Source: Hungatella sp. (GTDB lineage Bacteria > Bacillota > Clostridia > Lachnospirales > Lachnospiraceae). From it: a stretch of 64,000 nt of DNA. The position numbers were made by a program, and so were the translations under genes. The notes below the pieces were generated by a model. That model saw only the letters and a list, made by a program, of their open reading frames with translations, searched no databases and was not told where the DNA came from. Of the stretch, positions 628 to 37,600 are shown piece by piece. Each line of letters opens with the position of its first letter. Positions within the stretch are counted from its first letter, which is position 1. The stretch lies in assembly GCA_009712635.1 (NCBI GenBank), contig WASS01000029.1, positions 167,276-231,275 of the forward strand, given 5' to 3'.

Positions 628-1443
628 TTATTTTATTTTAAGTGGTATCTGAATCTCGATCAGATATTTTTCAGGACTGTTTTCATTCCACGGCCCGCGG
701 TGAACGATTTGTCTGGTTGGGGAGGACATTTCATATTGGCTGTTTTCATGCAGCCATTGTGCAAATGTAAGGTAAGCATCAGCGATATTTGAAAAATCTC
801 CGTATACCATTGTGCAGGCCATCATTGGTACCGGCTCAACGTTTCTAAACATAAAACCATCCATATTTTCCCCCTGTTTTTTAACAGGTGCACATAACTC
901 AACGTCTACATCTTTTTCCCTGTATTCGGTATCATAGTAGATAGAGAACGTATTTTTTGATATTTGTATCTGATGTTCAGATGCAAAGGCGGATAACTCC
1001 TGCCATAAATCACCCTCCGCGTAATAATCGGGTATTGTGCGGCGTAAGGAAAGAACCGGACAACCTGGTATGGATTTAATTGAAATGTTATAATGCATTT
1101 CACTTTTTTTATTTAACAGTTCGCTTTTTGCAAGCTTTATTTTATTTAATTTTTCCTGTTCAGCCTGGATTGTCTGTTCCACCTCCAGCTTCTTCCTGTC
1201 CAGTTGCGTTACTAGAGAAGAGTCATCCTCCATATTTAGAGCTGCTGCAATTTCTGATACTGTAAAACCGCTGTCACGAAGATAGATGATTTTGTTCAGA
1301 ACCGGTATCTGGTCTGCAGAATACATACGATATCCCGTCCAAGGGTCGATTTCAGCGGGTTTTAAAAGCCCTGCCTCATCATAATATCGGAGCATGCGAA
1401 TTGTTATTTGTGTCAGCTTTGAAAATTCACCTATCTGAAACAT
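628..1443 (-). CDS. MerR-family transcriptional regulator with C-terminal GyrI-like effector-binding domain
   Basis: The N-terminus has a MerR HTH (FQIGEFSKLTQITIRMLRYYDEAGLL) followed by a coiled-coil linker and a GyrI-like C-terminus. The ATG at 1443 is preceded by AAAGGGGGG. Confidence 0.8.
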   Translation of the reverse strand: MFQIGEFSKLTQITIRMLRYYDEAGLLKPAEIDPWTGYRMYSADQIPVLNKIIYLRDSGFTVSEIAAALNMEDDSSLVTQLDRKKLEVEQTIQAEQEKLNKIKLAKSELLNKKSEMHYNISIKSIPGCPVLSLRRTIPDYYAEGDLWQELSAFASEHQIQISKNTFSIYYDTEYREKDVDVELCAPVKKQGENMDGFMFRNVEPVPMMACTMVYGDFSNIADAYLTFAQWLHENSQYEMSSPTRQIVHRGPWNENSPEKYLIEIQIPLKIK

Positions 1444-1562
1444 CAATTTATCCCCCCTTTTGGATTTCCACCTTTATTATAAACAGGATCTAGTGATACT
1501 TCAATTTTTTTGTGAGTTGTTTATTTCATAAAAATCTGTTATTATAGTCGACATCTTGGTAA

Positions 1563-2993
<1,431 letters not shown>

Positions 2994-3022
2994 AAGTTTA
3001 CAAATAGTAGTTGATTTCATTG

Positions 3023-3116
3023 ACACTCCTGTGATAAGCTTTAGATAGTTCACAGGAGTGTTACTATTAAATTAGGCAAGTCTGCATCTGTTTTTGGTGC
3101 ATACTTGTTTTTTTTA
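3023..3116 (+). promoter_or_regulatory. RAT (ribonucleic antiterminator)/terminator module upstream of the GH88 operon (copy A)
   Basis: An 11-bp perfect hairpin (cactcctgtga..tcacaggagtg) is followed by the RAT-like sequence GGAGTGTTACTATTAAATTAGGCAAGTCTGC and then a weak hairpin with a T8 run. About 95 nt are near-identical to the module at 5532..5626. Confidence 0.6.
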
Positions 3117-3151
3117 TTATAAAAAGGCAGGGTTTTAAGAAAGGGGTATCT

Positions 3152-4285
3152 ATGAAATTAACAGTGAGCCAGGAATTGTGGGTGAATGAAACTCTAGAAA
3201 AAATCAAATCAAAAATGATTTTTGTTGCAGAACGCAATCAGAACAAGATTCCATATACGGCGGAGAACGGAGTTTTCAATGATTACTCCGAGGAGAAGAT
3301 TTACTGGTGGACCAATGGTTTCTGGCCTGGAATCATGTGGCAGATGTATCATGTCACCGGAAATAATCTGTATAAAGAGATTGCAGTAAAAACAGAGCAG
3401 AAGATGGATCAAAATTTTATGATGCCGGCAAAACTGGATCACGATAATGGGTTTAAATGGCTTCCTTCGGCAGTGGCTGATTATCGTATTACGGGAAGCC
3501 AGGATTCCCGGAACAGAGGACTACTGGCGGCAGAACTGCTGGCGGGACGTTATAATCCGGACGGACATTTCCTTCGTGCATGGAATGAATGGGGAGGAGA
3601 AAAACACCTTGGCTGGGCAATTATTGACTGCATGATGAATCTGCCGCTGTTATACTGGGCATGGAAGGAAACTGAAGACCCCAGATTCCGCCATATAGCG
3701 GTTAACCATGCAGATATGGCACAGACCTGTTTTGTAAGGCCGGATGGTTCGGTCAACCATATCGTTGAATTTAATCCGGAAACCGGAGAAATGATAAAAT
3801 CCCACGGAGGTCAGGGATACGAAGAAGGATCTTCCTGGACAAGAGGACAGGCGTGGGGGATTTATGGGTTTGTTCTAAGTTACAGGCATACACAAAAAGA
3901 ATCTTATCTGAATACTGCCAAGGTCATTGCAAATTATTTTATTGCCAATATTCCGGACAGCAGCCTGATCCCTGTGGATTTCGCCCAGCCACAGACCTGC
4001 AGCTGGGAAGATTCTACGGCTGCAGCCTGTTCTGCCTGCGCAATGATTGAACTTTCCAAATATGTCAAAGAATCTGAGAAGCATGTTTACATTCATTCAG
4101 CCATTCGTCTTTTAAAGGCACTGGATGAGAGCCGTTGTAACTGGAATCCTCACATGGATAATCTTCTGGAGAACTGCTCTGCAGCTTACCACGATACGAG
4201 ACACAATTTCCCTATGATTTATGCTGATTATTATTTTATAGAGGCCATTTTAAAATTAGCCGAAAAAGATTTATTTATCTGGTAA
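3152..4285 (+). CDS. unsaturated glucuronyl hydrolase (GH88)
   Basis: The protein is 377 aa, and from memory it is strongly collinear with Bacillus GL1 UGL (WTNGFW.GI.W, IIDC.MNLPLL.WA, SSWTRGQAWGIYGF, IELSKY vs LEIAS). Confidence 0.85.
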   Translation: MKLTVSQELWVNETLEKIKSKMIFVAERNQNKIPYTAENGVFNDYSEEKIYWWTNGFWPGIMWQMYHVTGNNLYKEIAVKTEQKMDQNFMMPAKLDHDNGFKWLPSAVADYRITGSQDSRNRGLLAAELLAGRYNPDGHFLRAWNEWGGEKHLGWAIIDCMMNLPLLYWAWKETEDPRFRHIAVNHADMAQTCFVRPDGSVNHIVEFNPETGEMIKSHGGQGYEEGSSWTRGQAWGIYGFVLSYRHTQKESYLNTAKVIANYFIANIPDSSLIPVDFAQPQTCSWEDSTAAACSACAMIELSKYVKESEKHVYIHSAIRLLKALDESRCNWNPHMDNLLENCSAAYHDTRHNFPMIYADYYFIEAILKLAEKDLFIW

Positions 4286-4302
4286 AAGAAAGGAATCATA
4301 TT

Positions 4303-5445
4303 ATGTCCATGAAGACCGAGGTAAGAACATACTGGTTAAATACAATGCTCAAAATCTCTCTGCCGGTACTTGTAAATCTGGCAAATGACAGTTTAAAGGC
4401 GCGCCTGCCCAATACAAATCCCAGCTGCCATAAAAATGCATTGCTGGAGGCATTTGGGCGTACCGCTTATGGGATCAGTCCATGGCTGGAACTGGAGGGC
4501 CTCACCGGAGAAGAAAAAAAGATGCAGGATTCCTGTAGGAAGCTTTTTCATAAGGCACTGGCCAACGCAACCGATCCGAAAGCCAAAGATTATATGTTAT
4601 TCGGGGGAGAAGAGGATGAAAGACAGCCTCTGGTAGATGCAGCATTTTTATGCAGTGCCCTGGTAAGAGCACAAAACAGTCTCGTTGGGAATATGAATGA
4701 TAAAACAAAGGAACAGCTGATCCGCTGCCTGATGATTACCAGAAGAATTCAGCCGTTAGATAATAACTGGGTCTTATTCAGCGCCATGGTAGAGACAGGT
4801 CTTTATCTTCTGGGAGGAGATTATGACAAGGACCGGATCCGTAACCATGTCCGTAAGATGCTTGGCTGGTATAAAGGGGACGGACTTTACGGAGATGGAG
4901 AGGTGTTTCATTTTGACTATTACAACAGCTTTGTCATACAACCAATGTTGCTGGATATCATGAATTGCTTTATAGATATGGAACAGGAGATGCTGCCCGT
5001 AGTCTGGCAGCGTTCAAAACGGTATGCAGCGATTTTGGAGAGAATGATTTCTCCGGAGGGGGCATATCCAATCGTAGGGCGTTCCGTATGCTACCGGTTT
5101 GGCGCATTTCAGACTTTATCGCAGATGGCACTGTACCACAGTCTTCCAGAGGAACTTACCCCTGCGCAGGTGCGCTGTGCCCTGACTGCAGTGATGAAAC
5201 GGATCATCAATGGACCTGGTATATTTGATGAAAACGGATGGTTGAAAACCGGTGTCAGCGGTTATCAGCCGGATTTGGGAGAGCGGTATATCAATACTGG
5301 AAGTCTGTATTTATGTACTACAGTATATCTGGTTCTGGGGCTTTTGCAGGAGGATCCGTTCTGGTCAGATGAGGATCAGCCATGGACTTCGCAAAAAATA
5401 TACTCCGGTCAAAATATGGCTGCAGATAAAGCCATCAAGTTATAA
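4303..5445 (+). CDS. DUF2264-like protein (probable GH154-family glycoside hydrolase partner of GH88)
   Basis: The gene is co-transcribed 17 nt downstream of GH88. My assignment to DUF2264/GH154 is from recollection, not from a visible motif. Confidence 0.4.
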   Translation: MSMKTEVRTYWLNTMLKISLPVLVNLANDSLKARLPNTNPSCHKNALLEAFGRTAYGISPWLELEGLTGEEKKMQDSCRKLFHKALANATDPKAKDYMLFGGEEDERQPLVDAAFLCSALVRAQNSLVGNMNDKTKEQLIRCLMITRRIQPLDNNWVLFSAMVETGLYLLGGDYDKDRIRNHVRKMLGWYKGDGLYGDGEVFHFDYYNSFVIQPMLLDIMNCFIDMEQEMLPVVWQRSKRYAAILERMISPEGAYPIVGRSVCYRFGAFQTLSQMALYHSLPEELTPAQVRCALTAVMKRIINGPGIFDENGWLKTGVSGYQPDLGERYINTGSLYLCTTVYLVLGLLQEDPFWSDEDQPWTSQKIYSGQNMAADKAIKL

Positions 5446-5531
5446 AAAACAATCAATACATACGGTTAAAAACTGTAAATGTGTACAAAATATATGAATC
5501 AATATTGGTTAAAATACCGATTGCCTTTGCT

Positions 5532-5626
5532 GCACTCCTGTGATAAGCTTTACGTAGTTTACAGGAGTGTTACTATTAAATTAGGCAAGTCTGCATCTGT
5601 TTTATTTGGTGCATGCTTGTTTTTTT
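5532..5626 (+). promoter_or_regulatory. RAT/terminator module upstream of bglG (copy B, near-identical to copy A)
   Basis: Same architecture as copy A: hairpin gcactcctgtga..tacaggagtg, then the RAT core GTGTTACTATTAAATTAGGCAAGTCTGC, then gcatgcttgttttttt. Confidence 0.6.
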
Positions 5627-5683
5627 GTTTTTAAACCATCTGTAGCATTATGTTTTTTACACATTGAGATCGAGGAAACTTTT

Positions 5684-6523
5684 ATGAAAATGGTTATTAA
5701 GCAGATATTAAATACAAATGCTGTGATATCAAACGATGAAGATGGACAGGATGTCCTGCTGCTTGGAAGCGGACTTGGATTTAAAAGCCGTATCGGCGAT
5801 GCCATCGATCAGGAGCGGGTTGAAAAACAATTTATTCTGAAAGATAAAAACCATAAAAGTCAGTTCCGGGAAATACTTGATACAGTGCCCCAGGAGTACA
5901 TCATGGTTGCAGAGGATGTCATTGATTTTGCAGTTCAGGTCTTTGATATGACTCTCAATGAAACCATTCATATTTCCCTGGTCGATCATATTTATCATGC
6001 AGTAGAAAATTTTCAGCAGGGGCTAGTCGTACCCAATTCCATTTTACATGATATCATACGGTTTTATCCGGACGAATATAAGGTGGGACAAAAGATGCTG
6101 GATTTGATAGAGTCCAAATTCGGTTACCGGTTATCCAATGATGAGGCAGGATTTGTGGCTATGCATTTTGTAACAGCCCGGCATAATCAGATCAGCGGAA
6201 ATGCGAAAAAGATGATTGTCATGGTGAGCGAACTCAATGATCTGATTATGTCAGAATTGAATTTTCAGGTGAAGGAAGATTCCCTTCCCTATTACCGATA
6301 TATGACCCATTTGAAATTCTTTGCCCAGCGTGTCATGAAAAAGTATTATTATAAAGAGCATGGCGGGGCGCGTATGTTAGAAGAGCTTCTTAGGAACTAC
6401 CCCGATGAATATCGTTGCAGCCAGAAAGTATGCCAATACATTGAAGATAAATATCATTACAAAGCAGGACACGATGAATTAGTATATCTGGCAGTTCATC
6501 TGTCACAATTAAAAAACAGTTAG
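5684..6523 (+). CDS. BglG/LicT-family transcription antiterminator (CAT RNA-binding domain + PRD1 + PRD2)
   Basis: The N-terminus MKMVIKQILNTNAVISNDEDGQDVLLLGSGLGF is a CAT domain, and two PRD repeats with conserved His follow. I trimmed the start to the ATG at 5684, because the track's TTG lies in the terminator U-run. Confidence 0.85.
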   Translation: MKMVIKQILNTNAVISNDEDGQDVLLLGSGLGFKSRIGDAIDQERVEKQFILKDKNHKSQFREILDTVPQEYIMVAEDVIDFAVQVFDMTLNETIHISLVDHIYHAVENFQQGLVVPNSILHDIIRFYPDEYKVGQKMLDLIESKFGYRLSNDEAGFVAMHFVTARHNQISGNAKKMIVMVSELNDLIMSELNFQVKEDSLPYYRYMTHLKFFAQRVMKKYYYKEHGGARMLEELLRNYPDEYRCSQKVCQYIEDKYHYKAGHDELVYLAVHLSQLKNS

Positions 6524-6528
6524 ATTTT

Positions 6529-6599
6529 GGCAGTGTTATGATTCAGTTCAGCAAAGCCTGGTTATTCTCTTAAATAATAGGGGATAACCAGGCTTTTTT
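6529..6599 (+). promoter_or_regulatory. RAT-like element overlapping an intrinsic terminator between bglG and the PTS/gusA genes
   Basis: The RAT-like sequence GGCAGTGTTATGATTCAGTTCAGCAAAGCCTGG overlaps the 5' arm of the hairpin aaagcctggttat..ataaccaggcttttttt. Confidence 0.55.
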
Positions 6600-6614
6600 G
6601 ATAAAAAATTTTAG

Positions 6615-8000
<1,386 letters not shown>

Positions 8001-8050
8001 TAGAGAATGGTGAATTATGACAGCATAAAAAGATAACAGGAGAGTGAAAG

Positions 8051-9853
8051 ATGCTGAATTTTTCAGAATTATACCCATGCAGCAATCAGGCAAGAATGGC
8101 CCAGCTGTTAGATGGTATGTGGAAATTCCGGTTTGATCCGGAGGAAAAAGGACTGCAGGAGGGCTGGCAGCGTAAGCTGCCAGACCCCATCTCCATGCCG
8201 GTTCCCGCTAGTTTTTCCGACTTTTTTACCACAAAAGAAGAACGGGATTTTTGCGGAGATTTCTGGTATGAGACAGAAGTATTTGTACCACGGGAGTGGG
8301 AGAAACAGGAGGTGGAAATCCGTTTCGGAAGCATTACCCACCGCGCAAGCGTTTATTGCAATGGCAGTCTGACAGCAACCCATGAAGGTGGATTTTTGCC
8401 GGTGGTTGCCAGAGTGACGGATCATGTAAAATTTGGTGAAGTAAATACATTTATCGTAAAGGCCAATAACGAATTAAATGAAGAGAGTCTTCCCTGTGGA
8501 ACCACCATGGTGCTTAGTGACGGAAGAAAACTGGCCAAGCCTTATTTTGACTTTTTTAATTACTCCGGAATTCAGAGAAGCGTATGGCTTGTTTCAAAGC
8601 CCACAGAATCCATCGAAGATTTCAGTGTGGATTATGAGTTAAATGGAGAAGATGCCGTTGTTCATTATCAGATTATGACAAATGGAGATCATGAAGTTTC
8701 ATTTGAATTATTAGATGAGAATAAACAGCAGGTAGCGAAAAGCACAGGCACAAAAGGAAGCGTAACTGTTTCCAAAGCCCATTTGTGGAATGTAGGAAAA
8801 GCCTATCTCTATCAGGCAGTCATGCGTATCTGGGATGGAGAAACACTGATTGATGAGTATTCCTCTAAAATCGGGATCAGAACAGTAAAAATAGCAGGAA
8901 AAGAAATTCAGATTAACGGAAAGGCTGTTTATCTGAAAGGATTTGGAAAACACGAAGATTTTGAAGTGATTGGTCGTGGCTTCAACTGGGGTGTTTTAAA
9001 GAGAGATTTTGAATGCATGAAATGGATTGGTGCCAACTGCTTTCGAACCAGTCATTATCCTTATGCAGAAGAGTGGTATCAGTTCGCAGATGAAGAAGGC
9101 TTCCTGATTATTGATGAGGTACCGGCAGTGGGAATGATGAGATCCACCAGAAACTTTGCAGATGCAGGAACCGGGAAATTTACCAGATTTTTTGAAACAC
9201 CTACCGTACCAAATCTGTTAAAGAACCATCTTCAGGCAGTGGAAGAGATGATTGTAAGGGATAAAAACCATCCCAGTGTAATTGCATGGAGTCTGTTTAA
9301 TGAACCGGAAACCACCAGCGAAGAGTCGAAAGATTATTTCACTGCAGTATTTGATGCCGCCAGAGCCTTGGATCCACAGAATCGTCCGATGACAGGGGCA
9401 TTTGAAAAGAACAGTCAGCCGGAACTGTGTAAGTGCTACCAGCTTTGTGATTTTATCTGTTTGAACCGTTATTACGGGTGGTATATCAAAGGAGGACCGG
9501 AGCTTGTTGATGCAAGGGAAGCCTTCTTAATAGAGATGAATAAGTGGAAAGATAAAAATTTGAATATACCGTTTGTATTTACTGAATTTGGTACGGATAC
9601 CATGGCGGCAGAACATAAACTTCCCAGTATTATGTGGAGCCAGGAATACCAGAACGAATATCTGGATATGAATTTTGAAATATTTGACCAGTTTGACTTT
9701 GTGCAGGGAGAATTGGTTTGGAATTTTGCTGATTTCCAGACAACAGAGGGAATCATGCGTGTAAATGGGAACAAAAAGGGGATTTTCAATCGGGTAAGAC
9801 AGCCGAAAAGTGCTGCTTTCGTATTAAAAAAACGTTGGGAATCATTGGACTAA
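8051..9853 (+). CDS. uidA: beta-glucuronidase (GH2)
   Basis: From memory it is collinear with E. coli UidA along its length (LDG.W.F, NNEL, HYPY, ARDKNHPSV.MWS..NEP, NRYYGWY, NFADF.T..G..RV.GNKKGIF.R.R.PK.AAF.L.KRW). It is 600 aa. Confidence 0.9.
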   Translation: MLNFSELYPCSNQARMAQLLDGMWKFRFDPEEKGLQEGWQRKLPDPISMPVPASFSDFFTTKEERDFCGDFWYETEVFVPREWEKQEVEIRFGSITHRASVYCNGSLTATHEGGFLPVVARVTDHVKFGEVNTFIVKANNELNEESLPCGTTMVLSDGRKLAKPYFDFFNYSGIQRSVWLVSKPTESIEDFSVDYELNGEDAVVHYQIMTNGDHEVSFELLDENKQQVAKSTGTKGSVTVSKAHLWNVGKAYLYQAVMRIWDGETLIDEYSSKIGIRTVKIAGKEIQINGKAVYLKGFGKHEDFEVIGRGFNWGVLKRDFECMKWIGANCFRTSHYPYAEEWYQFADEEGFLIIDEVPAVGMMRSTRNFADAGTGKFTRFFETPTVPNLLKNHLQAVEEMIVRDKNHPSVIAWSLFNEPETTSEESKDYFTAVFDAARALDPQNRPMTGAFEKNSQPELCKCYQLCDFICLNRYYGWYIKGGPELVDAREAFLIEMNKWKDKNLNIPFVFTEFGTDTMAAEHKLPSIMWSQEYQNEYLDMNFEIFDQFDFVQGELVWNFADFQTTEGIMRVNGNKKGIFNRVRQPKSAAFVLKKRWESLD

Positions 9854-9873
9854 TTATATAGAGGACTGAGCGA

Positions 9874-10404
9874 ATGGGATTTTTAGATAATTTATTTGGT
9901 AATAAAGAGAAAAAAGAATCAGATACGCCTGTTATTAAGAGCATAACTTGTGAACCAAAAACAATTTACAGCCCTTTAAAGGGAACTGTAATACCTCTTT
10001 CTAACGTAAGCGATCCGGTATTTGCAGAAGAAGTTATGGGACCAGGTGTTGGCATCGAACCAGAAGAAGGAAAGTTATATGCTCCGGTTGACGGTGAGAT
10101 TGTATCCGTATTTCCAACCGGACATGCAATTGGTATGACAACCGGGGATGGAATGGAGGTATTACTTCATATCGGCATCGATACAGTACAATTGGAAGGT
10201 GATGGTTTTCATGCTTTGGTAAAACAGGGAGATCATGTGAAAGCAGGGGAGCTGCTGGTAGAATTCGATTGTGCTAAGATTAAAGAGAAAGGTTATCAGA
10301 CTACCACTATGGTTCTGGTGCCCAATGCCGCTATGTTGGGGGCTATGAGCCAGCCAAAATTAGGTTCGGTTGAACCTCTGGAACAAATCTTTCATTTTCT
10401 GTAA
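9874..10404 (+). CDS. PTS glucose-family EIIA component
   Basis: It carries the EIIA-Glc fold motifs (PL.G....L..V.D.VF, GDGFHALVK.GD.V..G..L.EFD). Confidence 0.85.
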   Translation: MGFLDNLFGNKEKKESDTPVIKSITCEPKTIYSPLKGTVIPLSNVSDPVFAEEVMGPGVGIEPEEGKLYAPVDGEIVSVFPTGHAIGMTTGDGMEVLLHIGIDTVQLEGDGFHALVKQGDHVKAGELLVEFDCAKIKEKGYQTTTMVLVPNAAMLGAMSQPKLGSVEPLEQIFHFL

Positions 10405-10451
10405 TAACGTTCAGGGGAGTATTAACAGAGATAGAGAACACATTATAACAT

Positions 10452-10496
10452 AAAAATGCGGGCAGCTTTCATGGAAGGAAGCTGCCCGCATTTTTT
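10452..10496. terminator. intrinsic terminator after the PTS/gusA operon
   Basis: Stem aaaatgcgggcagc..gctgcccgcatttttt, followed by T6. Confidence 0.7.
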
Positions 10497-10525
10497 GTAC
10501 TTAATTAATTTATATGGGAATTACA

Positions 10526-10563
10526 TAAAAACATATTGACAAATATCAATATGTTTTTATAAT
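10526..10563 (+). promoter_or_regulatory. ars promoter (TTGACA-17-TATAAT) embedded in a perfect palindrome (probable ArsR operator)
   Basis: TTGACA lies at 10535-10540 and TATAAT at 10558-10563, exactly 17 bp apart. The 13-nt inverted repeat aaaaacatattga / tcaatatgttttt spans the -35 element and the spacer. Confidence 0.6.
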
Positions 10564-10620
10564 TAAGACATAGATAAATATCTATATCATAAATTCTGAG
10601 CATATAAAAGGGAGAAGACG

Positions 10621-10938
10621 ATGGATCAGCATGTAGATTATGCGTCAGTATTTAAAGCATTAGGAGATACAACGAGGCTAAAAATTATCGAGATGTTATC
10701 CTGTGGTGAACTTTGTGCATGTAATATTCTGGAATCTTTTGAGATTACACAGCCCACATTATCTTATCACATGAAGATACTTACAGAATGCGGGCTTGTA
10801 ATAAGCCGTAAAGAAGGATCCTGGATGCATTACAGCAATAATACCCAGTTAATTGAGCTGATTAAAAATTACTGGACCAATATTACTACAGAAAAGGAAG
10901 ACTGTATCTGTAAATATAAGAAAGCAGACGGGCGATGA
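10621..10938 (+). CDS. arsR: ArsR-family arsenite-responsive repressor
   Basis: It has a winged HTH plus the ELCACNIL As(III)-binding Cys pair. The RBS is AAAGGGAG. Confidence 0.85.
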   Translation: MDQHVDYASVFKALGDTTRLKIIEMLSCGELCACNILESFEITQPTLSYHMKILTECGLVISRKEGSWMHYSNNTQLIELIKNYWTNITTEKEDCICKYKKADGR

Positions 10939-11044
10939 GACAAATGACAAGTTGGACTGATATTTTTTGTAACACACCAGTTCAAGCTGCATAGTATATG
11001 CATATATGCTCATATAGATATTAACTAAGAAAGGAGTGATATTT

Positions 11045-11407
11045 TTGACAGATATTTTTAAGGCACTGTCTGAGGAAAGCAGGCTGCGAATCCTGACCCT
11101 GCTGATGGAACGGGAAATGTGTGTCTGTGAGATAGAAATTTGTCTGAATATGACACAGTCAAACGCTTCCAGACATCTTACGGTGCTGAAAAACTGTGGG
11201 ATTTTATACGGTTATAAGAAGGCGCAATGGGCATATTTTGGAATCAGCGACAGTTTTAAAAAGGAACATAAAGAACTGTGGGAGTATCTGCAAAAAAAGA
11301 TAGTTGAATTACCCACCTATGAGTCCGACCACGAACAATGCGAGAAGTACAGAACCGTTGATGTCTGTGCCAGTTCAAAAATAACTCAGGAAGGGGAGGA
11401 AGAATGA
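11045..11407 (+). CDS. arsR: ArsR-family repressor, second paralog
   Basis: It has an HTH plus the EMCVCEIE Cys pair. The start is ambiguous: GTG at 11036 has 0-nt spacing to AAGGAG, while TTG at 11045 has about 9-nt spacing. Confidence 0.75.
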   Translation: MTDIFKALSEESRLRILTLLMEREMCVCEIEICLNMTQSNASRHLTVLKNCGILYGYKKAQWAYFGISDSFKKEHKELWEYLQKKIVELPTYESDHEQCEKYRTVDVCASSKITQEGEEE

Positions 11408-12453
11408 AGAAAGAAAAATCAGCAGAGATTGGTTTTTTTCAAAGATATTTAACCATATGGGTAGCCCTATGTATGGTTGCAGGAGTATTAATCGGAAAAT
11501 TTTTTCCTGTGGTACCTGGTTTTTTCAGTCAGTTTGAATATGCAAATGTATCGATTCCTACAGCCATATTAATCTGGATTATGATTTATCCAATGATGAT
11601 GAAGGTGGATTTTGAAAGTGTGAAGTATGTGGGGAGAAATCCCAAAGGATTATATGTAACGTGGATTACAAATTGGTTAATAAAACCCTTCACAATGTTT
11701 GCAATAGCTTCTTTCTTTTTCTACGTTGTATTTAAGGGATTGATTCCTGCAGATCTGGGAAAAGAATATCTGGCTGGTGCCGTTTTATTAGGAGCTGCGC
11801 CTTGTACAGCCATGGTTTTTGTATGGAGCCAGCTGACCAAAGGCAATCCGGCCTACACCGTGGTGCAGGTAGCAACCAATGACTTGATTATACTGATTGC
11901 CTTCGTACCCATTGTCAAATTTTTGCTTGGAGTGAGTAAGGTATCTGTCCCCTGGGATACTCTTATTTTATCAGTCGTCTTATTTGTTGTGGTACCTTTA
12001 TTGGCAGGTGTCTTAACAAGAATGTATGTAAGTAAGAAAAAAGGAAGAGATTACTTTGAAAATCAGTTTATTCCCAGGTTCGATCAGGCAACAATAGCCG
12101 GTTTGCTGCTGATGCTTGTACTTTTATTTTCTTTCCAGGGGGATGTTATTTTAAATAATCCTCTGCACATATTACTCATAGCAGTGCCGCTAACTATACA
12201 GACATTTTTAATTTTCTTTCTGGCGTACCTTGCAGCGAAAGTACTTAAACTTCCTCACAATATAGCAGCCCCTGCGGGCATGATCGGCGCTTCCAATTTC
12301 TTCGAGCTTGCAGTTGCAGTAGCCATAGCTCTGTTCGGCATGGATTCTCCGGCAGCACTTGCCACTGTAGTCGGTGTTTTGACCGAGGTACCGATTATGC
12401 TTATACTTGTTAAGATAGCAAATAAGACAACTCATTGGTTTGAAACAAAATAA
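11404..12453 (+). CDS. acr3: arsenite efflux transporter, ACR3 family
   Basis: The N-terminus FFQRYLTIWVALCMVAGVLIG and about 10 TM segments are typical of Acr3. The start overlaps the arsR2 stop. Confidence 0.9.
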   Translation: MKKEKSAEIGFFQRYLTIWVALCMVAGVLIGKFFPVVPGFFSQFEYANVSIPTAILIWIMIYPMMMKVDFESVKYVGRNPKGLYVTWITNWLIKPFTMFAIASFFFYVVFKGLIPADLGKEYLAGAVLLGAAPCTAMVFVWSQLTKGNPAYTVVQVATNDLIILIAFVPIVKFLLGVSKVSVPWDTLILSVVLFVVVPLLAGVLTRMYVSKKKGRDYFENQFIPRFDQATIAGLLLMLVLLFSFQGDVILNNPLHILLIAVPLTIQTFLIFFLAYLAAKVLKLPHNIAAPAGMIGASNFFELAVAVAIALFGMDSPAALATVVGVLTEVPIMLILVKIANKTTHWFETK

Positions 12454-12477
12454 TATTAGAAAAGGAAGTATCAGAAT

Positions 12478-12867
12478 ATGAAAAAAATGCAGATTTTTGA
12501 ACCAGCTATGTGCTGCTCAACAGGACTTTGCGGAGTTTCCGTTGATCCCGAATTATTAAGAGTTTCCACGGTACTGAATACATTAAAGAATAACGGAGTA
12601 CAGGTAGGCCGTTTTAATCTAACAAATGCACCTCAGGAATTTGTAGCAAATAAAACAGTAAATGAGTTTGTCAGAGAAAAAGGTGCAGATGGCTTACCAG
12701 TTATTATTGTGGATGGAAATATAGTGATAACCGGCAGATATCCATCAAATGAAGAGTTTATCAAGTTGCTTGAAGTTCCGGAACATTTTATTGGCAAAAT
12801 TGCAGGTGACGCAGAGGCTGAGAAATCAAAAGGCTGTGGCTGTTCTGGAGGGGGTTGCTGTAGTTAG
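12478..12867 (+). CDS. arsD: arsenical resistance metallochaperone/repressor ArsD
   Basis: MKKMQIFEPAMCCSTGLCG (Cys12-Cys13-Cys18) plus C-terminal Cys clusters. Confidence 0.9.
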   Translation: MKKMQIFEPAMCCSTGLCGVSVDPELLRVSTVLNTLKNNGVQVGRFNLTNAPQEFVANKTVNEFVREKGADGLPVIIVDGNIVITGRYPSNEEFIKLLEVPEHFIGKIAGDAEAEKSKGCGCSGGGCCS

Positions 12868-14603
12868 TGGAAACGTTCAATATAGAAAAAGAAATATTTA
12901 CAAAATATCTTTTCTTTACCGGAAAAGGCGGAGTGGGAAAAACTTCAACAGCTTGTGCCACAGCCGTATCCCTTGCTGATTCAGGAAAAAGGGTGATGCT
13001 GATCAGCACGGACCCGGCCTCCAATCTCCAGGATGTATTTGAAACAGAACTGAACAATAAAGGCGTCTCAATTGCTGGCGTGCCTGGTCTTGTGGTAGCG
13101 AACTTAGATCCCATAGAGGCGGCGGCAGAGTATCGGGAAAGTGTAATTGCCCCTTATCGGGGACAGCTGCCGGATGCTGTTCTGAAAAATATGGAGGAAC
13201 AGATGTCTGGTTCCTGCACAGTTGAAATTGCAGCTTTTAATGAATTTTCAAAGTTTATTACAGATGAGCAAATTCAGGCTGATTGTGATTATATTATCTT
13301 TGATACTGCACCTACGGGGCATACATTAAGAATGCTCCAGCTCCCATCAGCCTGGAGCAGCTTTATCAGCGAAAATACCCACGGAGCTTCCTGTTTAGGG
13401 CAGCTGTCGGGTCTGGAAAGCAAGAGGGAAATCTATAAAAAGGCTGTGAAAACACTATCTGATGGAACTCTTACAACCTTAATTCTGGTTTCAAGACCTG
13501 AGGTGACTCCGTTAAAAGAAGCTGCGAGAGCCTCTTATGAGCTCAAGGATATTGGGGTAAAGAACCAGATAATAATCATGAACGGATTATTGACAGGATA
13601 CGATGATACGATTTCAGAAAGTTTATATAAAAAGCAACAGGCAGCGCTTTCTAATATGCCAGAAGAACTTATGAATCTGAAATGCAGTTTCATACCTCTC
13701 AGATCTTATCCCATAACCGGATTGAAAAACGTAAGAGCTTTACTGGAAAATGACAGTGATACAGTCAGTGAGGATAAAGTTAATGCGGATATCATACCAG
13801 GGCTGAAAGATGTAATAGACGATTTATACCAATCTGGCAAAAAAGTCATATTTACCATGGGAAAAGGGGGTGTGGGGAAAACAACAATAGCCGCATCTGT
13901 TGCACTTGGTCTGGCAGCCAGAGGGAAAAAAGTACATCTGACGACTACCGATCCGGCTGCTCATCTTAAGTTTGTTATGAGCGAAACGGATAAAATTACA
14001 ATGAGCCATATCGATGAAAAAGAGGAGTTAAAGAAATATCAGCAGGAAGTACTTAATAAAGCGAGGGAAACGATGTCAGAAGAGGATCTTGCATATATAG
14101 AAGAAGATTTAAGATCCCCCTGTACCCAGGAAATAGCTGTATTCAGGGCATTTGCGGATATCGTTGAGAAGGCAGAAGATCAGATTGTAGTGATTGATAC
14201 CGCACCTACTGGACATACGTTATTACTTCTGGATTCAACCCAAAGCTATAATCAGGAGATAAAACGCTCCCAGGGTGATGTTCCTGATTCAGCCAAAAAA
14301 CTGCTTCCAAGATTAAGAAATAAAGGTGAGACAGAAGTTATTATAGTCAGTCTCGCTGAAACTACCCCGGTTTATGAAGCGCTTCGTCTGGAGGCGGATT
14401 TAAAGCGGGCGGGCATTGCCGCAAAGTGGTGGGTTATTAATTCATCCCTTTACCGTACCGGTACCACGAATCATTTGCTGTCAGCAAAAGCCAGTAATGA
14501 AATTGAATGGATTAATAAGGTGGATGCCCACTCCAATGGAAATTTTGCAGTGATCAGCTGGAGACCGGATGAAATAAAGGATGAGAGTTTATATTTGCTG
14601 TAG
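12867..14603 (+). CDS. arsA: arsenite-transporting ATPase ArsA (duplicated P-loop halves)
   Basis: Two halves, each with GKGGVGKT and DTAPTGHTL motifs. The GTG start overlaps the arsD stop by 1 nt. Confidence 0.9.
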   Translation: METFNIEKEIFTKYLFFTGKGGVGKTSTACATAVSLADSGKRVMLISTDPASNLQDVFETELNNKGVSIAGVPGLVVANLDPIEAAAEYRESVIAPYRGQLPDAVLKNMEEQMSGSCTVEIAAFNEFSKFITDEQIQADCDYIIFDTAPTGHTLRMLQLPSAWSSFISENTHGASCLGQLSGLESKREIYKKAVKTLSDGTLTTLILVSRPEVTPLKEAARASYELKDIGVKNQIIIMNGLLTGYDDTISESLYKKQQAALSNMPEELMNLKCSFIPLRSYPITGLKNVRALLENDSDTVSEDKVNADIIPGLKDVIDDLYQSGKKVIFTMGKGGVGKTTIAASVALGLAARGKKVHLTTTDPAAHLKFVMSETDKITMSHIDEKEELKKYQQEVLNKARETMSEEDLAYIEEDLRSPCTQEIAVFRAFADIVEKAEDQIVVIDTAPTGHTLLLLDSTQSYNQEIKRSQGDVPDSAKKLLPRLRNKGETEVIIVSLAETTPVYEALRLEADLKRAGIAAKWWVINSSLYRTGTTNHLLSAKASNEIEWINKVDAHSNGNFAVISWRPDEIKDESLYLL

Positions 14604-14623
14604 ATAAAAGAGGTGAAAGTGAT

Positions 14624-15040
14624 ATGAATCAAGATCATAAACCGAATGTTGCCTTCGTTTGTGTACACAACTCCTGCCGAAGCCAGATAGCGGAAGCGTT
14701 GGGAAAGCATCTTGCCAGTGATGTGTTTGAAAGCTATTCGGCAGGAACCGAATGTAAGGATCAGATCAATCAGGATGCAGTCCGGTTAATGAAAAAGATA
14801 TATGGAATTGATATGGAGGCATCACAGAAAAGTAAGTTAATAGAAGAGATACCAGATCCTGATGTGGTAATTACCATGGGATGCAATGTTAAGTGTCCGG
14901 TTCTTCCCTGTAAAATGAGAGAGGACTGGGGATTAGATGATCCTTCAGGGAAAGACGATGGTGCTTTTGAGAAAACCATTGGGATAATCGAGAATAAAAT
15001 CTTAGATTTAAGAAACAGGCTGAAAAATCAGTTGCTATAA
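14624..15040 (+). CDS. arsC: arsenate reductase, LMW-PTP/thioredoxin-coupled type
   Basis: The motif VAFVCVHNSCRSQIAEAL is the CX5R P-loop of low-molecular-weight PTPase-type ArsC. Confidence 0.85.
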   Translation: MNQDHKPNVAFVCVHNSCRSQIAEALGKHLASDVFESYSAGTECKDQINQDAVRLMKKIYGIDMEASQKSKLIEEIPDPDVVITMGCNVKCPVLPCKMREDWGLDDPSGKDDGAFEKTIGIIENKILDLRNRLKNQLL

Positions 15041-15122: not shown

Positions 15123-16019
15123 TCAGATGGATTTGCGAATAACAGGTACATAAATTTCCATTACCGCATCTTCGGTCTCGTGGCAGCGCTCATCATAAAA
15201 TTCAAAATCCATCTTTGTTTCATCGAATTCATAATTGCTGAAAGGAAACCATTCGTTGAAAATGTATTTCCATGTCTGTTTTATTGCGGTTGAAAACGGA
15301 TCATGATCTTCTGTCTGGGCTGCAAGAATTTCTTTAACAGGTGGTGTTGTAAAAACAGCATATTCTGCTTCCGGTACAGTAATGGTCATCATATCCGGAG
15401 TTACTTTTTCAAAGTCATCAACAATAACACCCAATAAATAAACAGCGCTGCCATTTTCTGAATTAGGCACACAGATTCCAACTTCCCCATGATTGGGAGG
15501 ATTTAATTGTTGATACATTTTACTTTCCAGATTTTCTCCATCATAGGTATCCCAATATGCAGCGATATCCTTTGTATAATTTTCTGTAATACTTGTGTTA
15601 ATTCCATAGCCAGCAACCAGAAAAGCTGGTTTTCTTATGATAACAGGATTCATAATAATACCCCCTAAATTTGTTATAATTTCTTTCACATCACATCCAC
15701 TCATTCTGGAAATATAGGTAGTAGGGCTATAACCGAATTCTTTACGAAACGCTTTTGAATATCCGCTTGCAGTTTCGAATCCGTAATCAAGTGCAACTTC
15801 TATAATCTTTTTACTAATAAGAAGGTCTGCACGGGAAAGCAATAATCGCTTTTTACGGACGAATTCCATAAGCGGAATCCCTTGACTGACAGCAAATATT
15901 CTGCAAAAATGAAATACGGAATACCCCGCCTGCTGTGATAGTTGTTCCGCTGTCAATTCTTCTTTTATATTCCTTTCAATAAAGTGAATGCATTGTTCGA
16001 TTGTCTTACTATATTCCAA
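15123..16019 (-). CDS. AraC-family regulator with GyrI-like effector-binding domain
   Basis: An N-terminal AraC HTH pair is followed by a C-terminal GyrI-like domain. The start is TTG after AAGGAG. Confidence 0.8.
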   Translation of the reverse strand: MEYSKTIEQCIHFIERNIKEELTAEQLSQQAGYSVFHFCRIFAVSQGIPLMEFVRKKRLLLSRADLLISKKIIEVALDYGFETASGYSKAFRKEFGYSPTTYISRMSGCDVKEIITNLGGIIMNPVIIRKPAFLVAGYGINTSITENYTKDIAAYWDTYDGENLESKMYQQLNPPNHGEVGICVPNSENGSAVYLLGVIVDDFEKVTPDMMTITVPEAEYAVFTTPPVKEILAAQTEDHDPFSTAIKQTWKYIFNEWFPFSNYEFDETKMDFEFYDERCHETEDAVMEIYVPVIRKSI

Positions 16020-16105: not shown

Positions 16106-17011
16106 TCAGGTGAGATTTCTGAGCCAGATCTCCATATTTGTTGTATCAGGTGAATGGCTTGCATAGCGTTCCGCACAGAAAGCATCGGTCTGCAGTTTGT
16201 GTTTAGGAAGCCATGTATTATAAATATAATGCTGGGCTTTATAAAGCGCATCCATAACAAGGGCTTCAAAGCTCTCGGCTTCAAAAGAGCATATAATATA
16301 TTCTCCGGCAGGTAATTCCCAGCTCTTAAAAGCGCTTGGAATTTCTGCGTGCTCATAAGGCATACCAGCAAAATAACTAAAACATCCTTCTTTTAAACTG
16401 GAGTAAGCGGCTCCAATTTCCTCTGTGTCCTCAGAAACACAGGTCAATGCAGTTTTTTGTTTATGAAAGTCATCCCAAAGCGAGGCAAGCGGATCTATTC
16501 CGGATTCTGTTCCCAGACCGTCTATATGATGGATGGGTACATCCTTTATTAACCCCATATAATGGACGGGTTCTTTAAGTTCTTTTCTGTGTATTTCCAG
16601 AACAATGCCATCGGTAATCAGCGGCACTTCCTCATCGACCAGTGTGTAGTGAAGCAGAAGCTGGGGTTTTGTCATACGGTTGAGAGTCTGTGGTTTTTTG
16701 CGGTAATCATCTGGAGTCAGACCAAAGGTGTTTTTAAATGTGCGGGAAAAGTGTTCGTGAGAGGTAAATCCAAGCTCTAATGCAATATCCAGGATTCTTA
16801 TGTCTGATTGGAGTAAGCAGTCTGCTGCCCTTGCCATACGGCGGAGTTTGATATACTCGGTGACCGGTTTTTTGACAAGGCGGCTAAATAAGCGTTGATA
16901 ATAGAACGGAGACAGACAAGCTGTTTTTGCCAGATCCTCAATATTAATATCTTCATTTAAATGATCTTCAATATAATTGACTGTTTGTTGTATTTGTTCC
17001 CATGCGTGCAT
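16106..17011 (-). CDS. AraC-family regulator with GyrI-like effector-binding domain (paralog)
   Basis: Its AraC HTH is DLAKTACLSPFYYQRLF...LGFTSHEHFSRTFKNTFGLTP. An AAGGAGGTG RBS precedes the start. Confidence 0.8.
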   Translation of the reverse strand: MHAWEQIQQTVNYIEDHLNEDINIEDLAKTACLSPFYYQRLFSRLVKKPVTEYIKLRRMARAADCLLQSDIRILDIALELGFTSHEHFSRTFKNTFGLTPDDYRKKPQTLNRMTKPQLLLHYTLVDEEVPLITDGIVLEIHRKELKEPVHYMGLIKDVPIHHIDGLGTESGIDPLASLWDDFHKQKTALTCVSEDTEEIGAAYSSLKEGCFSYFAGMPYEHAEIPSAFKSWELPAGEYIICSFEAESFEALVMDALYKAQHYIYNTWLPKHKLQTDAFCAERYASHSPDTTNMEIWLRNLT

Positions 17012-17283: not shown

Positions 17284-17832
17284 ATGACTGTCAGTGAGAT
17301 AATTCGGGAACGGCGAACAATACGTGAATTCAATGATAATAAAGTATCTTTGGATGCAATTACAGAACTGCTGGAAACCGCTGTCTGGGCACCGTACCAC
17401 GGGATTCCGGAGCCATGGAGGTTCCTTGTATTTTCTGATCATGGAATAGACCGTCTGAGCGATATGATTTATCAGGCTCTTTCTCAGACTGAGCGAAAAG
17501 AGTATGGGGATAAATTAAAGCAGCATCTCAGTACGGTTCCTGTTGCTGTTGTAGTAGTGGGAAAACTGGACCGAAATCAAAAAATCATGGATGAGGTTTC
17601 CGCATCCGTGAGTGCACTCATTCAAAATTTTCAATTAGCAGCCTGGGAGAAGGAGATTGGGGTTGTATGGAAAACACAATCTTATATGCATACACCTCAA
17701 ATCAGCAAAAGTCTGGAACTGAAACCGGATGAAAAATTAGCAGGAATTCTTCTATGTGGATATTTTGATAAAAAGCCATTGAAACATTCTCGCAATCCGG
17801 CAGTATCCAGAACCATATTTATAAAAGAATGA
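17284..17832 (+). CDS. nitroreductase-family FMN oxidoreductase
   Basis: It has the RRTIREF nitroreductase N-terminal motif and is 182 aa. Confidence 0.8.
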   Translation: MTVSEIIRERRTIREFNDNKVSLDAITELLETAVWAPYHGIPEPWRFLVFSDHGIDRLSDMIYQALSQTERKEYGDKLKQHLSTVPVAVVVVGKLDRNQKIMDEVSASVSALIQNFQLAAWEKEIGVVWKTQSYMHTPQISKSLELKPDEKLAGILLCGYFDKKPLKHSRNPAVSRTIFIKE

Positions 17833-33011: not shown

Positions 33012-33107
33012 ATAGCTGACATGAATAAAAGACCCGATAAAAGCCAATTTACTTTATCGGGTCTTATTATTTCAATCCTGTTATACTGGGCACAGAAAGG
33101 GGGCAGG

Positions 33108-37340: not shown

Positions 37341-37496
37341 TAATTTTAATCTCCTTTATCCTCAGACGGTTTCATTTTTACTTTATGAGAGCATATCACA
37401 TTAACAAACAGGATTCTACCGTTTTTATACAGTTATTTACAGTAGTGTACTTGACAAGGGTTGAAAAAAAAAGTAAACTTAGTTCTATTATTGTAT

Positions 37497-37600
37497 TGGG
37501 AATGAGGCTCTCCCTGGATGGTTATATCCAAACCGCACTTTGCTGATGGCTTCTGTATATTTATGCTGAATATACGGAAGTGATCAGTTGTTTTTTTGTT
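37497..37600 (+). ncRNA. fluoride riboswitch (crcB motif) with terminator expression platform
   Basis: GGGAAUGAGGCUCUCC...AAACCGC...GCUGAUGGCUUCUG matches the crcB-motif aptamer as I recall it from B. cereus and T. petrophila. The 3' aptamer strand CUGAUGGCUUC doubles as the 5' arm of a terminator (gaagtgatcag + T7). The promoter is TTGACA-17-TAAACT at 37451-79. Confidence 0.7.

Follow-up and report, generated by a model that had tools for sequence, protein, structure and literature searches.

The locus described here raises the question of how a beta-glucuronide, whose glucuronic acid (GlcA) carries a carboxylate at C6, could serve as the substrate of a phosphotransferase system (PTS) of the glucose family, which phosphorylates its sugars at that position. 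The locus lies in a stretch of 64,000 nucleotides from Hungatella sp. (assembly GCA_009712635.1, contig WASS01000029.1, positions 167,276 to 231,275 of the forward strand), the whole of which is referred to below as the window; the closest matches of its proteins are in L. xylanisolvens DSM 3808 and related Lacrimispora genomes (98–100% identity). It spans positions 1587–10497, where a gene for a GH1 6-phospho-beta-glucosidase is followed by a 2.5-kb cassette encoding an unsaturated glucuronyl hydrolase (UGL, family GH88) and a beta-D-glucuronate dehydratase (GDH), and then by a bgl-type unit in the order RAT/terminator, bglG, RAT/terminator, EIIBC, gusA, EIIA (RAT, ribonucleic antiterminator; EII, enzyme II of the PTS), gusA being the gene for the beta-glucuronidase (GUS). 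An earlier reading of the window by a model (the original prediction) had listed these genes, and all of them are present on the + strand where it had placed them. It had also drawn attention to the C6 paradox, which is real, as none of the known PTS sugars carries a modification at C6 (PMC6837340). We favour, with moderate confidence, the answer that this is a PTS-coupled beta-glucuronide utilisation locus, in which the PTS would phosphorylate the hexose that is attached to GlcA and the GUS would act on the phosphorylated glucuronide. This and the other functional statements made below all rest on homology and gene context.

The EIIBC-GusA pair and the glucuronidase aglycone site

The adjacency of EIIBC and GusA is kept in the Lachnospiraceae, in Faecalibacterium/Lawsonibacter, in the Fusobacteriaceae, in Solobacterium and in the Lactobacillaceae, and the comparative search for gusA-PTS linkage that the original prediction had proposed has thus a positive outcome across Firmicutes families and the Fusobacteriaceae. 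When the loci were approached from the GusA side, the adjoining EIIBC proteins were 52–61% identical in Faecalibacterium, Lawsonibacter, Fusobacteriaceae, Solobacterium, Companilactobacillus and Oribacterium. From the EIIBC side, the best 120 homologues were all EIIBC-only proteins with at least 53% identity; the EIIB cysteine motif was found in 120 of 120 members of this clade and the sequence [IV]TEP in 119 of them, and the three homologues that were sampled blind to GusA were all encoded directly upstream of a GH2 GUS (3/3). A metagenome scan with EIIBC gave one locus, and the gene contexts were sampled via a limited number of protein look-ups. Most other GUS genes of the Lachnospiraceae, whose products are ~60% identical, have no PTS neighbour.

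The regulators that accompany this pair are of different types (labels of the form L0xx below denote comparison loci, and those of the form P0xxx homologous proteins). Regulation by BglG and RATs is found in Lacrimispora, in L088 and in the abundant human-gut Faecalibacterium type represented by L017/L090, the GusA of L090 being recorded in 621 blocks of the collection. At most other EIIBC-GusA loci a divergent AraC-family regulator of ~396 aa is present, which is probably the sensor of the inducer. Such regulators were observed in L019, L020, L023, L024, L027, L029, L033, L075, L082-L087 and L096 (e.g., L082:5637-6827, - strand), and their N-terminal domain of ~300 aa has no Pfam match. Both EIIA and GH1 are optional among the EIIBC-GusA loci. 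In L088, where the order is BglG-EIIBC-EIIA-GusA-GH1, GusA and GH1 are 76 and 71% identical to the window proteins and GH1 is translationally coupled behind GusA, and in L075 GH1 also follows GusA; this co-inheritance makes GH1 a plausible partner, in keeping with the suggestion made earlier that it may process a co-substrate. The phosphate-binding signature of the window GH1 comprises residues 421–432.

A second PTS family was found in a similar setting. The operons at L095:1775-9973 and L096:1783-9964 encode a LicR/Mga-type PRD activator, EIIA, EIIB and EIIC proteins of the Lac/cellobiose family, GH88, GDH and a GH2 GUS, and the AraC-family regulator that adjoins the Lac-PTS operon in L096 is 39–44% identical to those of L020, L075 and L082. 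The recruitment to glucuronide-cleaving enzymes thus extends to two PTS families and three types of regulator. Because the adjacency is kept under changing regulators, and because a second PTS family has converged on the same coupling, we infer that the substrate of the PTS is also the substrate of the GUS. Similarly, the strict conservation of the EIIB Cys and of the GITE-type Glu (Cys27 in HCITRLR and Glu376 in GGVTEP of the window protein), together with the presence of PRD regulators, which are activated by phosphate drain, argues for real phosphotransfer.

The window GusA can be aligned with R. gnavus GUS (RgGUS, 6EC6) over 598 residues without a gap (985 bits). Its residues E418, TEF, Y474/Y478 and N574/K576, which correspond to E413, TEY504, Y468/Y472 and N566/K568 (the N-x-K carboxylate motif), have all been kept. 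The PTS-linked enzymes differ from other GUS on the aglycone side of the active site. In a comparison of 15 non-redundant PTS-linked and 41 unlinked GusA proteins, mapped onto E. coli uidA (EcGUS), the L361 position is occupied by Thr in 100% of the linked versus 2% of the unlinked enzymes, the G362 position by Arg, His, Lys or Gln versus Met, Ala or Leu, and the M447 position by Lys in 100% versus 15%. Counted over 17 linked and 45 unlinked enzymes, the pair consisting of Thr and the basic residue is present in 17 and 0, respectively, and Lys at M447 in 17 and 10. Residues L361 and M447 of EcGUS reportedly contact the inhibitor or aglycone.

In a simple neighbour-joining distance tree without support values, the Thr+basic pair tracks PTS linkage exactly, and the unlinked subclades that are nested among the linked enzymes carry hydrophobic residues. 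The absence of the pair also correctly predicted the absence of a PTS neighbour for three of three homologues. One enzyme with the motif 'MN' (P0136/L089) adjoins a sucrose-type EIIBCA and a GH32 gene, not an EIIBC of this clade. The GUS enzymes of the Lac-PTS operons (L095, L096) branch inside the hydrophobic 'L-M-M' clade, yet they have T-K-K at these positions, a convergent acquisition of the signature. No gain of a GusB-type symporter was seen in the GUS loci that had lost the PTS, and their contexts are heterogeneous.

RgGUS and FpGUS belong to the signature-bearing group, and these two enzymes and LrGUS are the closest solved homologues of the window GusA. All three are 10–100-fold less efficient on p-nitrophenyl (pNP)-glucuronide, and neither Inhibitor 1 nor UNC10201652 inhibits them (Biernat et al., PMC6351562). 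In the Loop-1 GUS enzymes, Loop 1 is the main aglycone contact; the same study makes no mention of operons or PTS (PMC6351562). The efficient Loop-1 GUS enzymes of E. coli, C. perfringens and streptococci lie in clusters with a UidB permease.

Sequence differences that distinguish the GusA-linked clade were also observed in EIIBC, when it was set against 141 diverse EIIBC(A) proteins of the Bgl family with 33–46% identity. Arg411 (nt ~7857-7859) is invariant in the clade and Arg is found at this position in 5% of the 141 outgroup proteins, whereas at the position of Ile342 (nt ~7650-7652) 94 of the 141 have Gln. The clade also has an extra Gly before VTEP and several Gly-to-Asn changes. Residues 342 and 411 of EIIC are candidate specificity determinants and are put forward as leads only; in a PDB profile search that was made to place R411 and I342, the EIIA and EIIB domains alone aligned. 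The window EIIBC scores below the cut-offs of the beta-glucoside models (TIGR01995, 479.7 vs 614.7; NF007335, 407 vs 894), partly because its IIA domain is encoded by a separate gene.

The transported molecule and its proposed phosphorylation

According to the mechanism that we favour, EIIBC and EIIA would import a glycoside with a terminal beta-GlcA, for example a disaccharide of the glucuronosyl-beta-glucose type or a glucuronosyl-glucoside, and would phosphorylate the 6-OH of the neighbouring hexose and not GlcA. As GlcA has no 6-OH, the phosphate is most likely placed on this hexose, which is also what has been assumed for the streptococcal glycosaminoglycan (GAG)-PTS, where a uronide disaccharide is imported and the phosphate is assigned to C6 of the amino sugar (PMC6837340). 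In the cytoplasm, GlcA would be removed either through hydrolysis by GusA or through dehydration by GDH to delta-4,5-GlcA, followed by hydration and cleavage by UGL. What remains would be a hexose-6-phosphate, or a 6-phospho-beta-glucoside whose degradation could be finished by GH1. The draining of phosphate from EIIB to the substrate would activate BglG, and the same antiterminator would gate the cassette first and the remaining genes of the operon after it. The cationic aglycone pocket of the GUS would, in this mechanism, be an adaptation to the phosphate on the substrate.

The proposed part of the cassette in this scheme is based upon the conservation of its active sites. The window UGL keeps the equivalents of both catalytic Asp residues (D88 and D149, Bacillus GL1 numbering), with DHDNGF and IIDC conserved. 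In GDH, 10 of the 10 residues that were mutated in BcGDH are conserved (E74, R78, N176, N177, W178, F181, Y229, R285, Y289 and Y354), and the protein matches the PDB entries 9o4u and 9nwf, both deposited as beta-D-glucuronic acid dehydratase (E ~1e-81), and also 8oi4. Members of the DUF2264/former GH154 family are not hydrolases but dehydrate saturated beta-GlcA at the non-reducing end to its delta-4,5 form, a reaction that BT3677 performs on methyl beta-glucuronide; the delta-4,5 product of GDH is then cleaved by GH88, so that the glucuronide is removed in two steps (JBC 2025, PMC12269599). Since GDH makes the unsaturated sugar from saturated GlcA, the pair needs no polysaccharide lyase. No signal peptide was detected on UGL, GDH or GusA. 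UGL and GDH are predicted to be cytoplasmic, and the cassette is likely to constitute a second, lyase-independent, two-step route for the cleavage of glucuronides in this compartment. The close homologues of GDH (P0241-P0360) are all named 'DUF2264 domain-containing' or 'hypothetical' in public sources. Forms of GDH of ~380 aa that lack a signal peptide are widespread (Paenibacillus, Eisenbergiella, Cohnella and others) and often adjoin GH88 (e.g., L097).

A number of observations weigh against the favoured mechanism. The transported molecule is assigned by inference from homology and gene context. The PTSs of the Bgl and Lac families normally phosphorylate the non-reducing sugar, which in a GlcA-beta-hexose is GlcA, and the favoured model therefore needs an unusual binding mode. 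No cationic adaptation matching that of the GUS is seen in UGL or GDH: Tyr175, an aglycone contact in the mobile loop of BcGDH, is replaced by Asp in the window protein, and among the residues R236, S365, S368 and K370, which in the streptococcal UGL reportedly interact with the 6-O-anionic group, three of the four are absent from the window UGL (where G, A, D and R are found). As to the GUS signature itself, Lys at M447 goes back to the ancestor of a wider clade, which has 10 unlinked enzymes among its members, and the association of the Thr+basic pair with the PTS reflects few independent events (~2 gains and 2–3 losses). No genes for the catabolism of uronate or of DHU (4-deoxy-L-threo-5-hexosulose-uronic acid), including DhuI/DhuD or KduI/KduD, were found in the window between 10 and 39 kb. 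Internal promoters may exist upstream of gusA; promoter-like matches occur at chance level. Lastly, acidic residues are present in the pocket of LrGUS (PMC6351562).

A broader claim can be made only tentatively, and we would not be surprised to see it fail: glucuronide-bearing glycosides would form a new class of PTS substrates, with a matching class of 'phospho-glucuronide' GUS enzymes that is recognised by Thr and Arg/His/Lys at L361/G362 and Lys at M447, in the Firmicutes and Fusobacteria, and this would have evolved at least two times with two unrelated PTS families. In an even more radical version, the phosphate would be placed on GlcA itself, at another hydroxyl or as an acyl phosphate.

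The alternative that survives best, which we nevertheless consider unlikely, is that ordinary beta-glucuronides (aryl or alkyl) enter through the PTS without being phosphorylated at C6 and that GusA, or GDH and UGL, trap the substrate by cleaving it. Uptake could then occur by facilitated diffusion through EIIC activated by EIIB~P, by phosphorylation of another hydroxyl, or via a transient acyl phosphate on the carboxylate. This would be consistent with the fact that the commonest module consists of the AraC regulator and EIIBC-GusA alone, without GH1 or any other enzyme. GusA has moreover retained its N-x-K carboxylate motif and both catalytic Glu residues, RgGUS does hydrolyse pNP-glucuronide, and Arg411 of the clade EIIC, or the loss of Gln at 342, could serve in carboxylate recognition. 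However, the strictly conserved GITE-type Glu and EIIB Cys speak against uptake of this kind, as does the need of the PRD regulators (BglG, LicR) for phosphate drain to a substrate in order to be induced. RgGUS and FpGUS are also poor enzymes on simple glucuronides, no PTS is known for a C6-modified sugar, and there would be no explanation for the cationic residues that arose convergently on the aglycone side of the GUS.

It is improbable, in our view, that the sugars are arranged in the inverse order, beta-Glc-(1->x)-beta-GlcA-R, as in saponin-type substrates or fragments of the gellan or type-3-capsule type. The terminal Glc would then be phosphorylated, GH1 would free Glc-6-P, and GusA or GDH and UGL would act afterwards. 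Most EIIBC-GusA modules and both of the Lac-PTS-UGL-GDH-GUS operons are without a phospho-beta-glucosidase in the operon, the GH1 gene of Lacrimispora lies outside of RAT control, and this order of sugars gives no reason for the cationic residues at the GUS aglycone site. Its merit is that every enzyme would have its textbook specificity and the PTS its canonical binding mode, and the inheritance of GH1 together with GusA in the Lacrimispora/L088 lineage, its place behind GusA in L075 and the beta-glucosidase of the R. gnavus operon are all in keeping with it.

The original prediction had taken the GH88-DUF2264 pair as a pointer to unsaturated uronide oligosaccharides derived from GAGs or gums. 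The identity of UGL stands, and GH88 enzymes do act on lyase products; streptococci import an unsaturated hyaluronan disaccharide by means of a PTS (PMC6837340), and in L086 a GH88 gene and an ABC transporter adjoin the EIIBC-GusA module. The part of the claim that concerns the source of the sugar does not stand equally well, as GDH, the partner of GH88, makes the unsaturated sugar in situ from saturated GlcA and so removes the need for a lyase, and neither a polysaccharide lyase nor DhuI/DhuD or KduI/KduD was found in the annotated part of the window (1–39 kb). Further, the cassette is dispensable and often lost, while the conserved core is EIIBC-GusA. That lyase products are the substrate, with GH88 as the key enzyme and GusA as an auxiliary, is thus quite improbable. 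Least likely of all, and to be given very little credence, is that EIIBC is an ordinary transporter of neutral beta-glucosides working with GH1, and gusA and the cassette are mere passengers, which takes up the refuting condition of the original prediction, a neutral beta-glucoside PTS unrelated to GusA: the best family matches of EIIBC are indeed beta-glucoside PTS models and GH1 lies next door, but the EIIBC-GusA adjacency, usually without GH1 in the operon, outlasts the distance between families, changes of regulator and the absence of a lost GH1 or EIIA. The same coupling is also seen in an independent PTS family, and the GUS signature tracks PTS linkage.

The antitermination switches and the history of the cassette

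The three RAT modules that had been claimed for this locus are found far above chance. The motif GTGTTAYK-N6-16-AGSMAAR is present in 3 copies in the 64 kb, both strands included, versus 0.07 expected, and 0 of 100 shuffles reached 3. In all three modules, 11 nt belong both to the RAT and to the 5' arm of a far stronger terminator hairpin, behind which a U-tract follows, and this overlap is predicted to be of the classical, mutually exclusive kind. Folded singly, all three RATs gave the same structure, consisting of a lower stem of 3–4 bp, an internal loop, a middle stem of U-A/G-C/U-G, a 2-nt bulge, a 3-bp top stem and a 6-nt loop, and the consensus fold of nine copies, in which three genera are represented, contains 9 pairs, 5 of which show compensatory changes. 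Both RAT types recur in L088 and L090/L017, before bglG and between bglG and EIIBC. Rfam contains no curated RAT family, and the window gave sub-threshold chance matches only. Modules 1 and 2 form a direct repeat of ~100 nt with 96% identity, and the RAT of the GH88-DUF2264 pair is identical to that before bglG, which upholds the earlier proposal that the pair is co-regulated by the same antiterminator.

The regulator itself has the expected domains (PF03123, 8.3e-19; PF00874 twice, 9.4e-36), and its score of 292.4 bits with the LicT equivalog model is just under the cut-off of 300. Its PRD histidines, which were assigned by eye, lie in the motifs DHIYH, AMHF, MTHL and AVHL. The coordinates of all features of the locus are given in Table 1.

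Table 1. Genes and regulatory elements of the locus, in the order of their position in the window.
Feature	Position	Strand	Evidence or remark
GH1 6-phospho-beta-glucosidase	1587-2993	+	NF007158 647.9 bits vs cut-off 639
cre-like palindrome TGTAAAAGTTTACA	2989-3002	.	overlaps GH1 stop codon; kept in every Lacrimispora spacer
Promoter P1, TTGACA-N18-GATAGT	3020-3049	+	10/12 consensus matches
Palindrome CACTCCTGTGA-N15-TCACAGGAGTG, perfect 11-bp arms	3024-3060	+	right arm = RAT1 5' strand
RAT1 (A-type)	3053-3084, core 3058	+	
Terminator T1	3074-3115	+	5' arm overlaps RAT1 by 11 nt; U-tract end; -19.1 kcal/mol, z -3.8
GH88 unsaturated glucuronyl hydrolase (UGL)	3152-4285	+	PDB 1vd5 E 1.9e-63; Pfam match weak
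Beta-D-glucuronate dehydratase (DUF2264, former GH154, GDH)	4303-5445	+	PF10022 356 bits; PDB 9o4u E 6.8e-82
Second cre-like box TGTAAATGTGTACA	5474-5487	.	remnant of ancestral GH1-bglG spacer
Palindrome, second copy	5533-5569	+	one mismatch
RAT2	5562-5593, core 5567	+	core identical to RAT1
Terminator T2	5583-5628	+	overlaps RAT2
BglG/LicT antiterminator	open reading frame 5606-6523, true start ATG 5684 (279 aa)	+	CAT_RBD + two PRD
RAT3 (B-type)	6529-6558, core 6533	+	
Terminator T3	6548-6601	+	overlaps RAT3 by 11 nt; -31 kcal/mol, z -5.75
PTS EIIBC, beta-glucoside subfamily, GusA-linked clade	6627-8000	+	
GusA, Loop-1 GH2 beta-glucuronidase, R. gnavus GUS orthologue	8051-9853	+	NF007538 694 bits vs cut-off 544
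PTS EIIA, glucose type	9874-10404	+	His motifs FPTGH, LLHIG visible in sequence
Operon-end terminator	10452-10497	+	17-bp perfect stem, -34 kcal/mol, z -9.1

Consensus scans for promoters and terminators were at chance level overall, and their matches were used only where comparative conservation agrees with them. GH1 has its own promoter and no RAT of its own. The -10 position of P1 reads GATAAT or TATAAT in L008, L009 and L026. The boxes resembling catabolite-responsive elements (cre-like in Table 1) are candidate CcpA sites for catabolite repression of the operon. The 11-bp palindrome could act as an anti-antiterminator or as a DNA operator. Its first copy covers the spacer and the -10 of the promoter; in read-through RNA, the second copy would form a strong hairpin hiding half of the RAT. 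The palindrome is not present in the RAT leaders of L088 and L090.

The history of the cassette can be followed by comparing related loci. A short form of the locus, GH1-bglG-EIIBC-gusA-EIIA, was observed in 11 of the Lacrimispora-type loci spanning the junction (L002, L005, L007, L010-L012, L014-L016, L031 and L081), while the long form, with UGL and GDH between GH1 and bglG, is present in the window and in L003, L004, L009, L013 and L026. As L003 (long) and L031 (short) both belong to L. xylanisolvens, the presence of the cassette differs between strains of the same species. In L008 an internal deletion fuses residues 1–334 of UGL to residues 72–380 of GDH (L008:5457-7392), and in L022 GDH is down to 45 residues (L022:6039-7332). 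The cassette is strain-variable, and it is decaying in some relatives. A further rearrangement was noted in L013, where an AraC/GyrI-type gene and a duplicated 3' fragment of GH1 (aa 354–463) are inserted before the cassette (L013:1631-3712); the first RAT of this locus is degenerate.

In the short form, the spacer between GH1 and bglG consists, in this order, of a cre-like box, TTGGTT-17-TATAAC, the palindrome, the RAT and the terminator. In the long forms, this entire spacer, including the remnant after the GH1 stop codon, stands before bglG, and the -10 of this leader copy is degraded (TGCTGC) in all of them except L013. The copy that precedes UGL has lost 24 nt and gained a strong promoter, TTGACA-18-GATAGT (TATAAT in L026). 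The cassette thus came in along with a duplication of the leader, and transcription of the array probably starts at 3020-3049 and would pass three BglG-dependent terminators. The original prediction had treated GH88 and DUF2264 as an operon separate from that of gusA; they are probably not independent, being a strain-variable insertion in which the second-copy promoter is degraded in most carriers. Outside Lacrimispora, the cassette has its nearest relatives in the L095 operon (UGL 82% and GDH 75% identity), and an operon of the L095 type is a plausible donor.

Neighbouring genes, known systems and significance

The flanks of the locus are unrelated to it, with a divergent MerR/GyrI regulator upstream and an arsenic-resistance (ars) cluster downstream. 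The latter (10525-15040) comprises two ArsR genes, an ACR3/SBF-type permease, an ArsA ATPase and two small open reading frames, and a perfect 15-bp palindrome before it (10525-10539/10546-10560), which overlaps a 12/12 consensus promoter, is probably the ArsR operator. Four regulators with a GyrI-like effector-binding domain, one of the MerR type and three of the AraC type, are encoded at 628-1446 (-), 15123-16019 (-), 16106-17011 (-) and 33021-33968 (+), and two nitroreductases at 17284-17832 and 25856-26662. This neighbourhood gives the impression of dealing with xenobiotics or aromatic compounds, and this may bear on the aglycones freed by the locus. In addition, a fluoride riboswitch (37489-37562, +; 38.5 bits) is present directly upstream of a CLC-type channel gene (37596-38831, +), the usual arrangement for fluoride export, and a NiCo (nickel/cobalt) riboswitch at 56636-56733 (-; 77.9 bits).

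In the bglGFB operon of E. coli, the regulator gene bglG is flanked by two RAT/terminator modules, and so is the regulator gene of the window. The resemblance to this operon and to B. subtilis licT/sacY extends to the CAT+PRD1+PRD2 antiterminator, to the RAT of ~30 nt that overlaps an intrinsic terminator and to the expected role of EII as the negative sensor. The window differs from these systems in having a glucuronidase, not a phospho-beta-glucosidase, downstream of the transporter, in its third RAT before the cassette and in the 11-bp palindrome, which would sequester the 5' strand of the RAT if transcribed. With the E. coli uidRABC cluster and the UidB clusters of C. perfringens and streptococci, the locus shares its presumed purpose, the import of a glucuronide for hydrolysis in the cytoplasm, and a Loop-1 GUS with the same catalytic and carboxylate-binding residues. 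However, gus clusters of the E. coli type encode a TetR-type repressor, an H+ symporter of the GPH family and also a porin, and involve no phosphorylation; at the positions of Thr and Lys in the PTS-linked enzymes, their GUS has the hydrophobic residues L361 and M447. Neither a TetR-type GusR/UidR repressor nor a GPH-family GusB/UidB symporter was found in the window between 1 and 16 kb.

The streptococcal GAG cluster is similar to the favoured scheme in that a uronide enters by a PTS, UGL cleaves it in the cytoplasm and the phosphate is assigned to the non-uronate sugar, but it has a Man-type EIIABCD, requires a lyase, includes DhuI/DhuD and has neither GUS nor GDH (PMC6837340); the locus has a Glc-family EIIBC and EIIA only, and its UGL is without the 6-O-sulfate-binding residues. 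In PUL25, a polysaccharide utilisation locus (PUL) of Bacteroides caccae, the genes for BcGDH and BcGH88 are likewise adjacent, with the dehydratase acting before GH88 and the ten active-site residues in common, but these enzymes are secreted and have chondroitin as their substrate, and the PUL is of the Sus type and includes a PL35 lyase (PMC12269599). Those of the window differ in their predicted cytoplasmic location, their place in a RAT-controlled PTS operon together with a GH2 GUS, and the replacement of Tyr175 by Asp. The closest precedent is the gus operon of R. gnavus E1 (Beaud et al. 2005), in which, as summarised in a review (PMC10112845), a Loop-1 GH2 GUS (RgGUS, 6EC6/5Z18/6JZ1) is encoded together with a beta-glucosidase and a PTS transporter of the beta-glucoside type. 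The gusA-PTS linkage, which the original prediction had offered as an observation to be pursued, is thus already on record there. In comparison with the E1 operon as the review describes it, the window has EIIA after gusA, GH1 upstream and outside the RAT unit, and the UGL-GDH cassette with its duplicated leader.

Of the elements of this locus, the presence of gus in a PTS operon (R. gnavus E1), BglG/RAT control (textbook) and the GDH+GH88 bypass (2025) were already known. In the literature searched, with subscription journals outside its scope, nothing specific was found on a PTS route for glucuronides. Within the same scope, the generality of the EIIBC-GusA core, the convergence with a Lac-type PTS, and the GUS pocket signature with its coincidence with kinetically odd enzymes appear to be new; GDH and UGL in cytoplasmic Firmicutes PTS operons, and leader duplication as the means by which the cassette entered the regulon, were likewise not found described.

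Bacterial beta-glucuronidases of the gut reactivate drugs, hormones and carcinogens, and the manner in which glucuronides enter Firmicutes is therefore of importance; for SN-38 glucuronide (SN-38G), no entry mechanism has been established (PMC5665930). Uptake by a PTS that yields a phosphorylated glucuronide would explain the weak activity of the signature-bearing enzymes on standard substrates, their insensitivity to GUS inhibitors and their adjacency to PTS genes. If this is correct, FpGUS and RgGUS, both abundant in the gut, were given the wrong substrates in their assays, namely unphosphorylated ones. As judged from its sequence, the locus also places the dehydratase+GH88 bypass in the cytoplasm of a Firmicute, and it offers a clean natural example of the growth of a regulon through duplication of a RAT leader. 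The old, unexplained linkage of gus and PTS genes is thereby turned into a specific and testable biochemical hypothesis.

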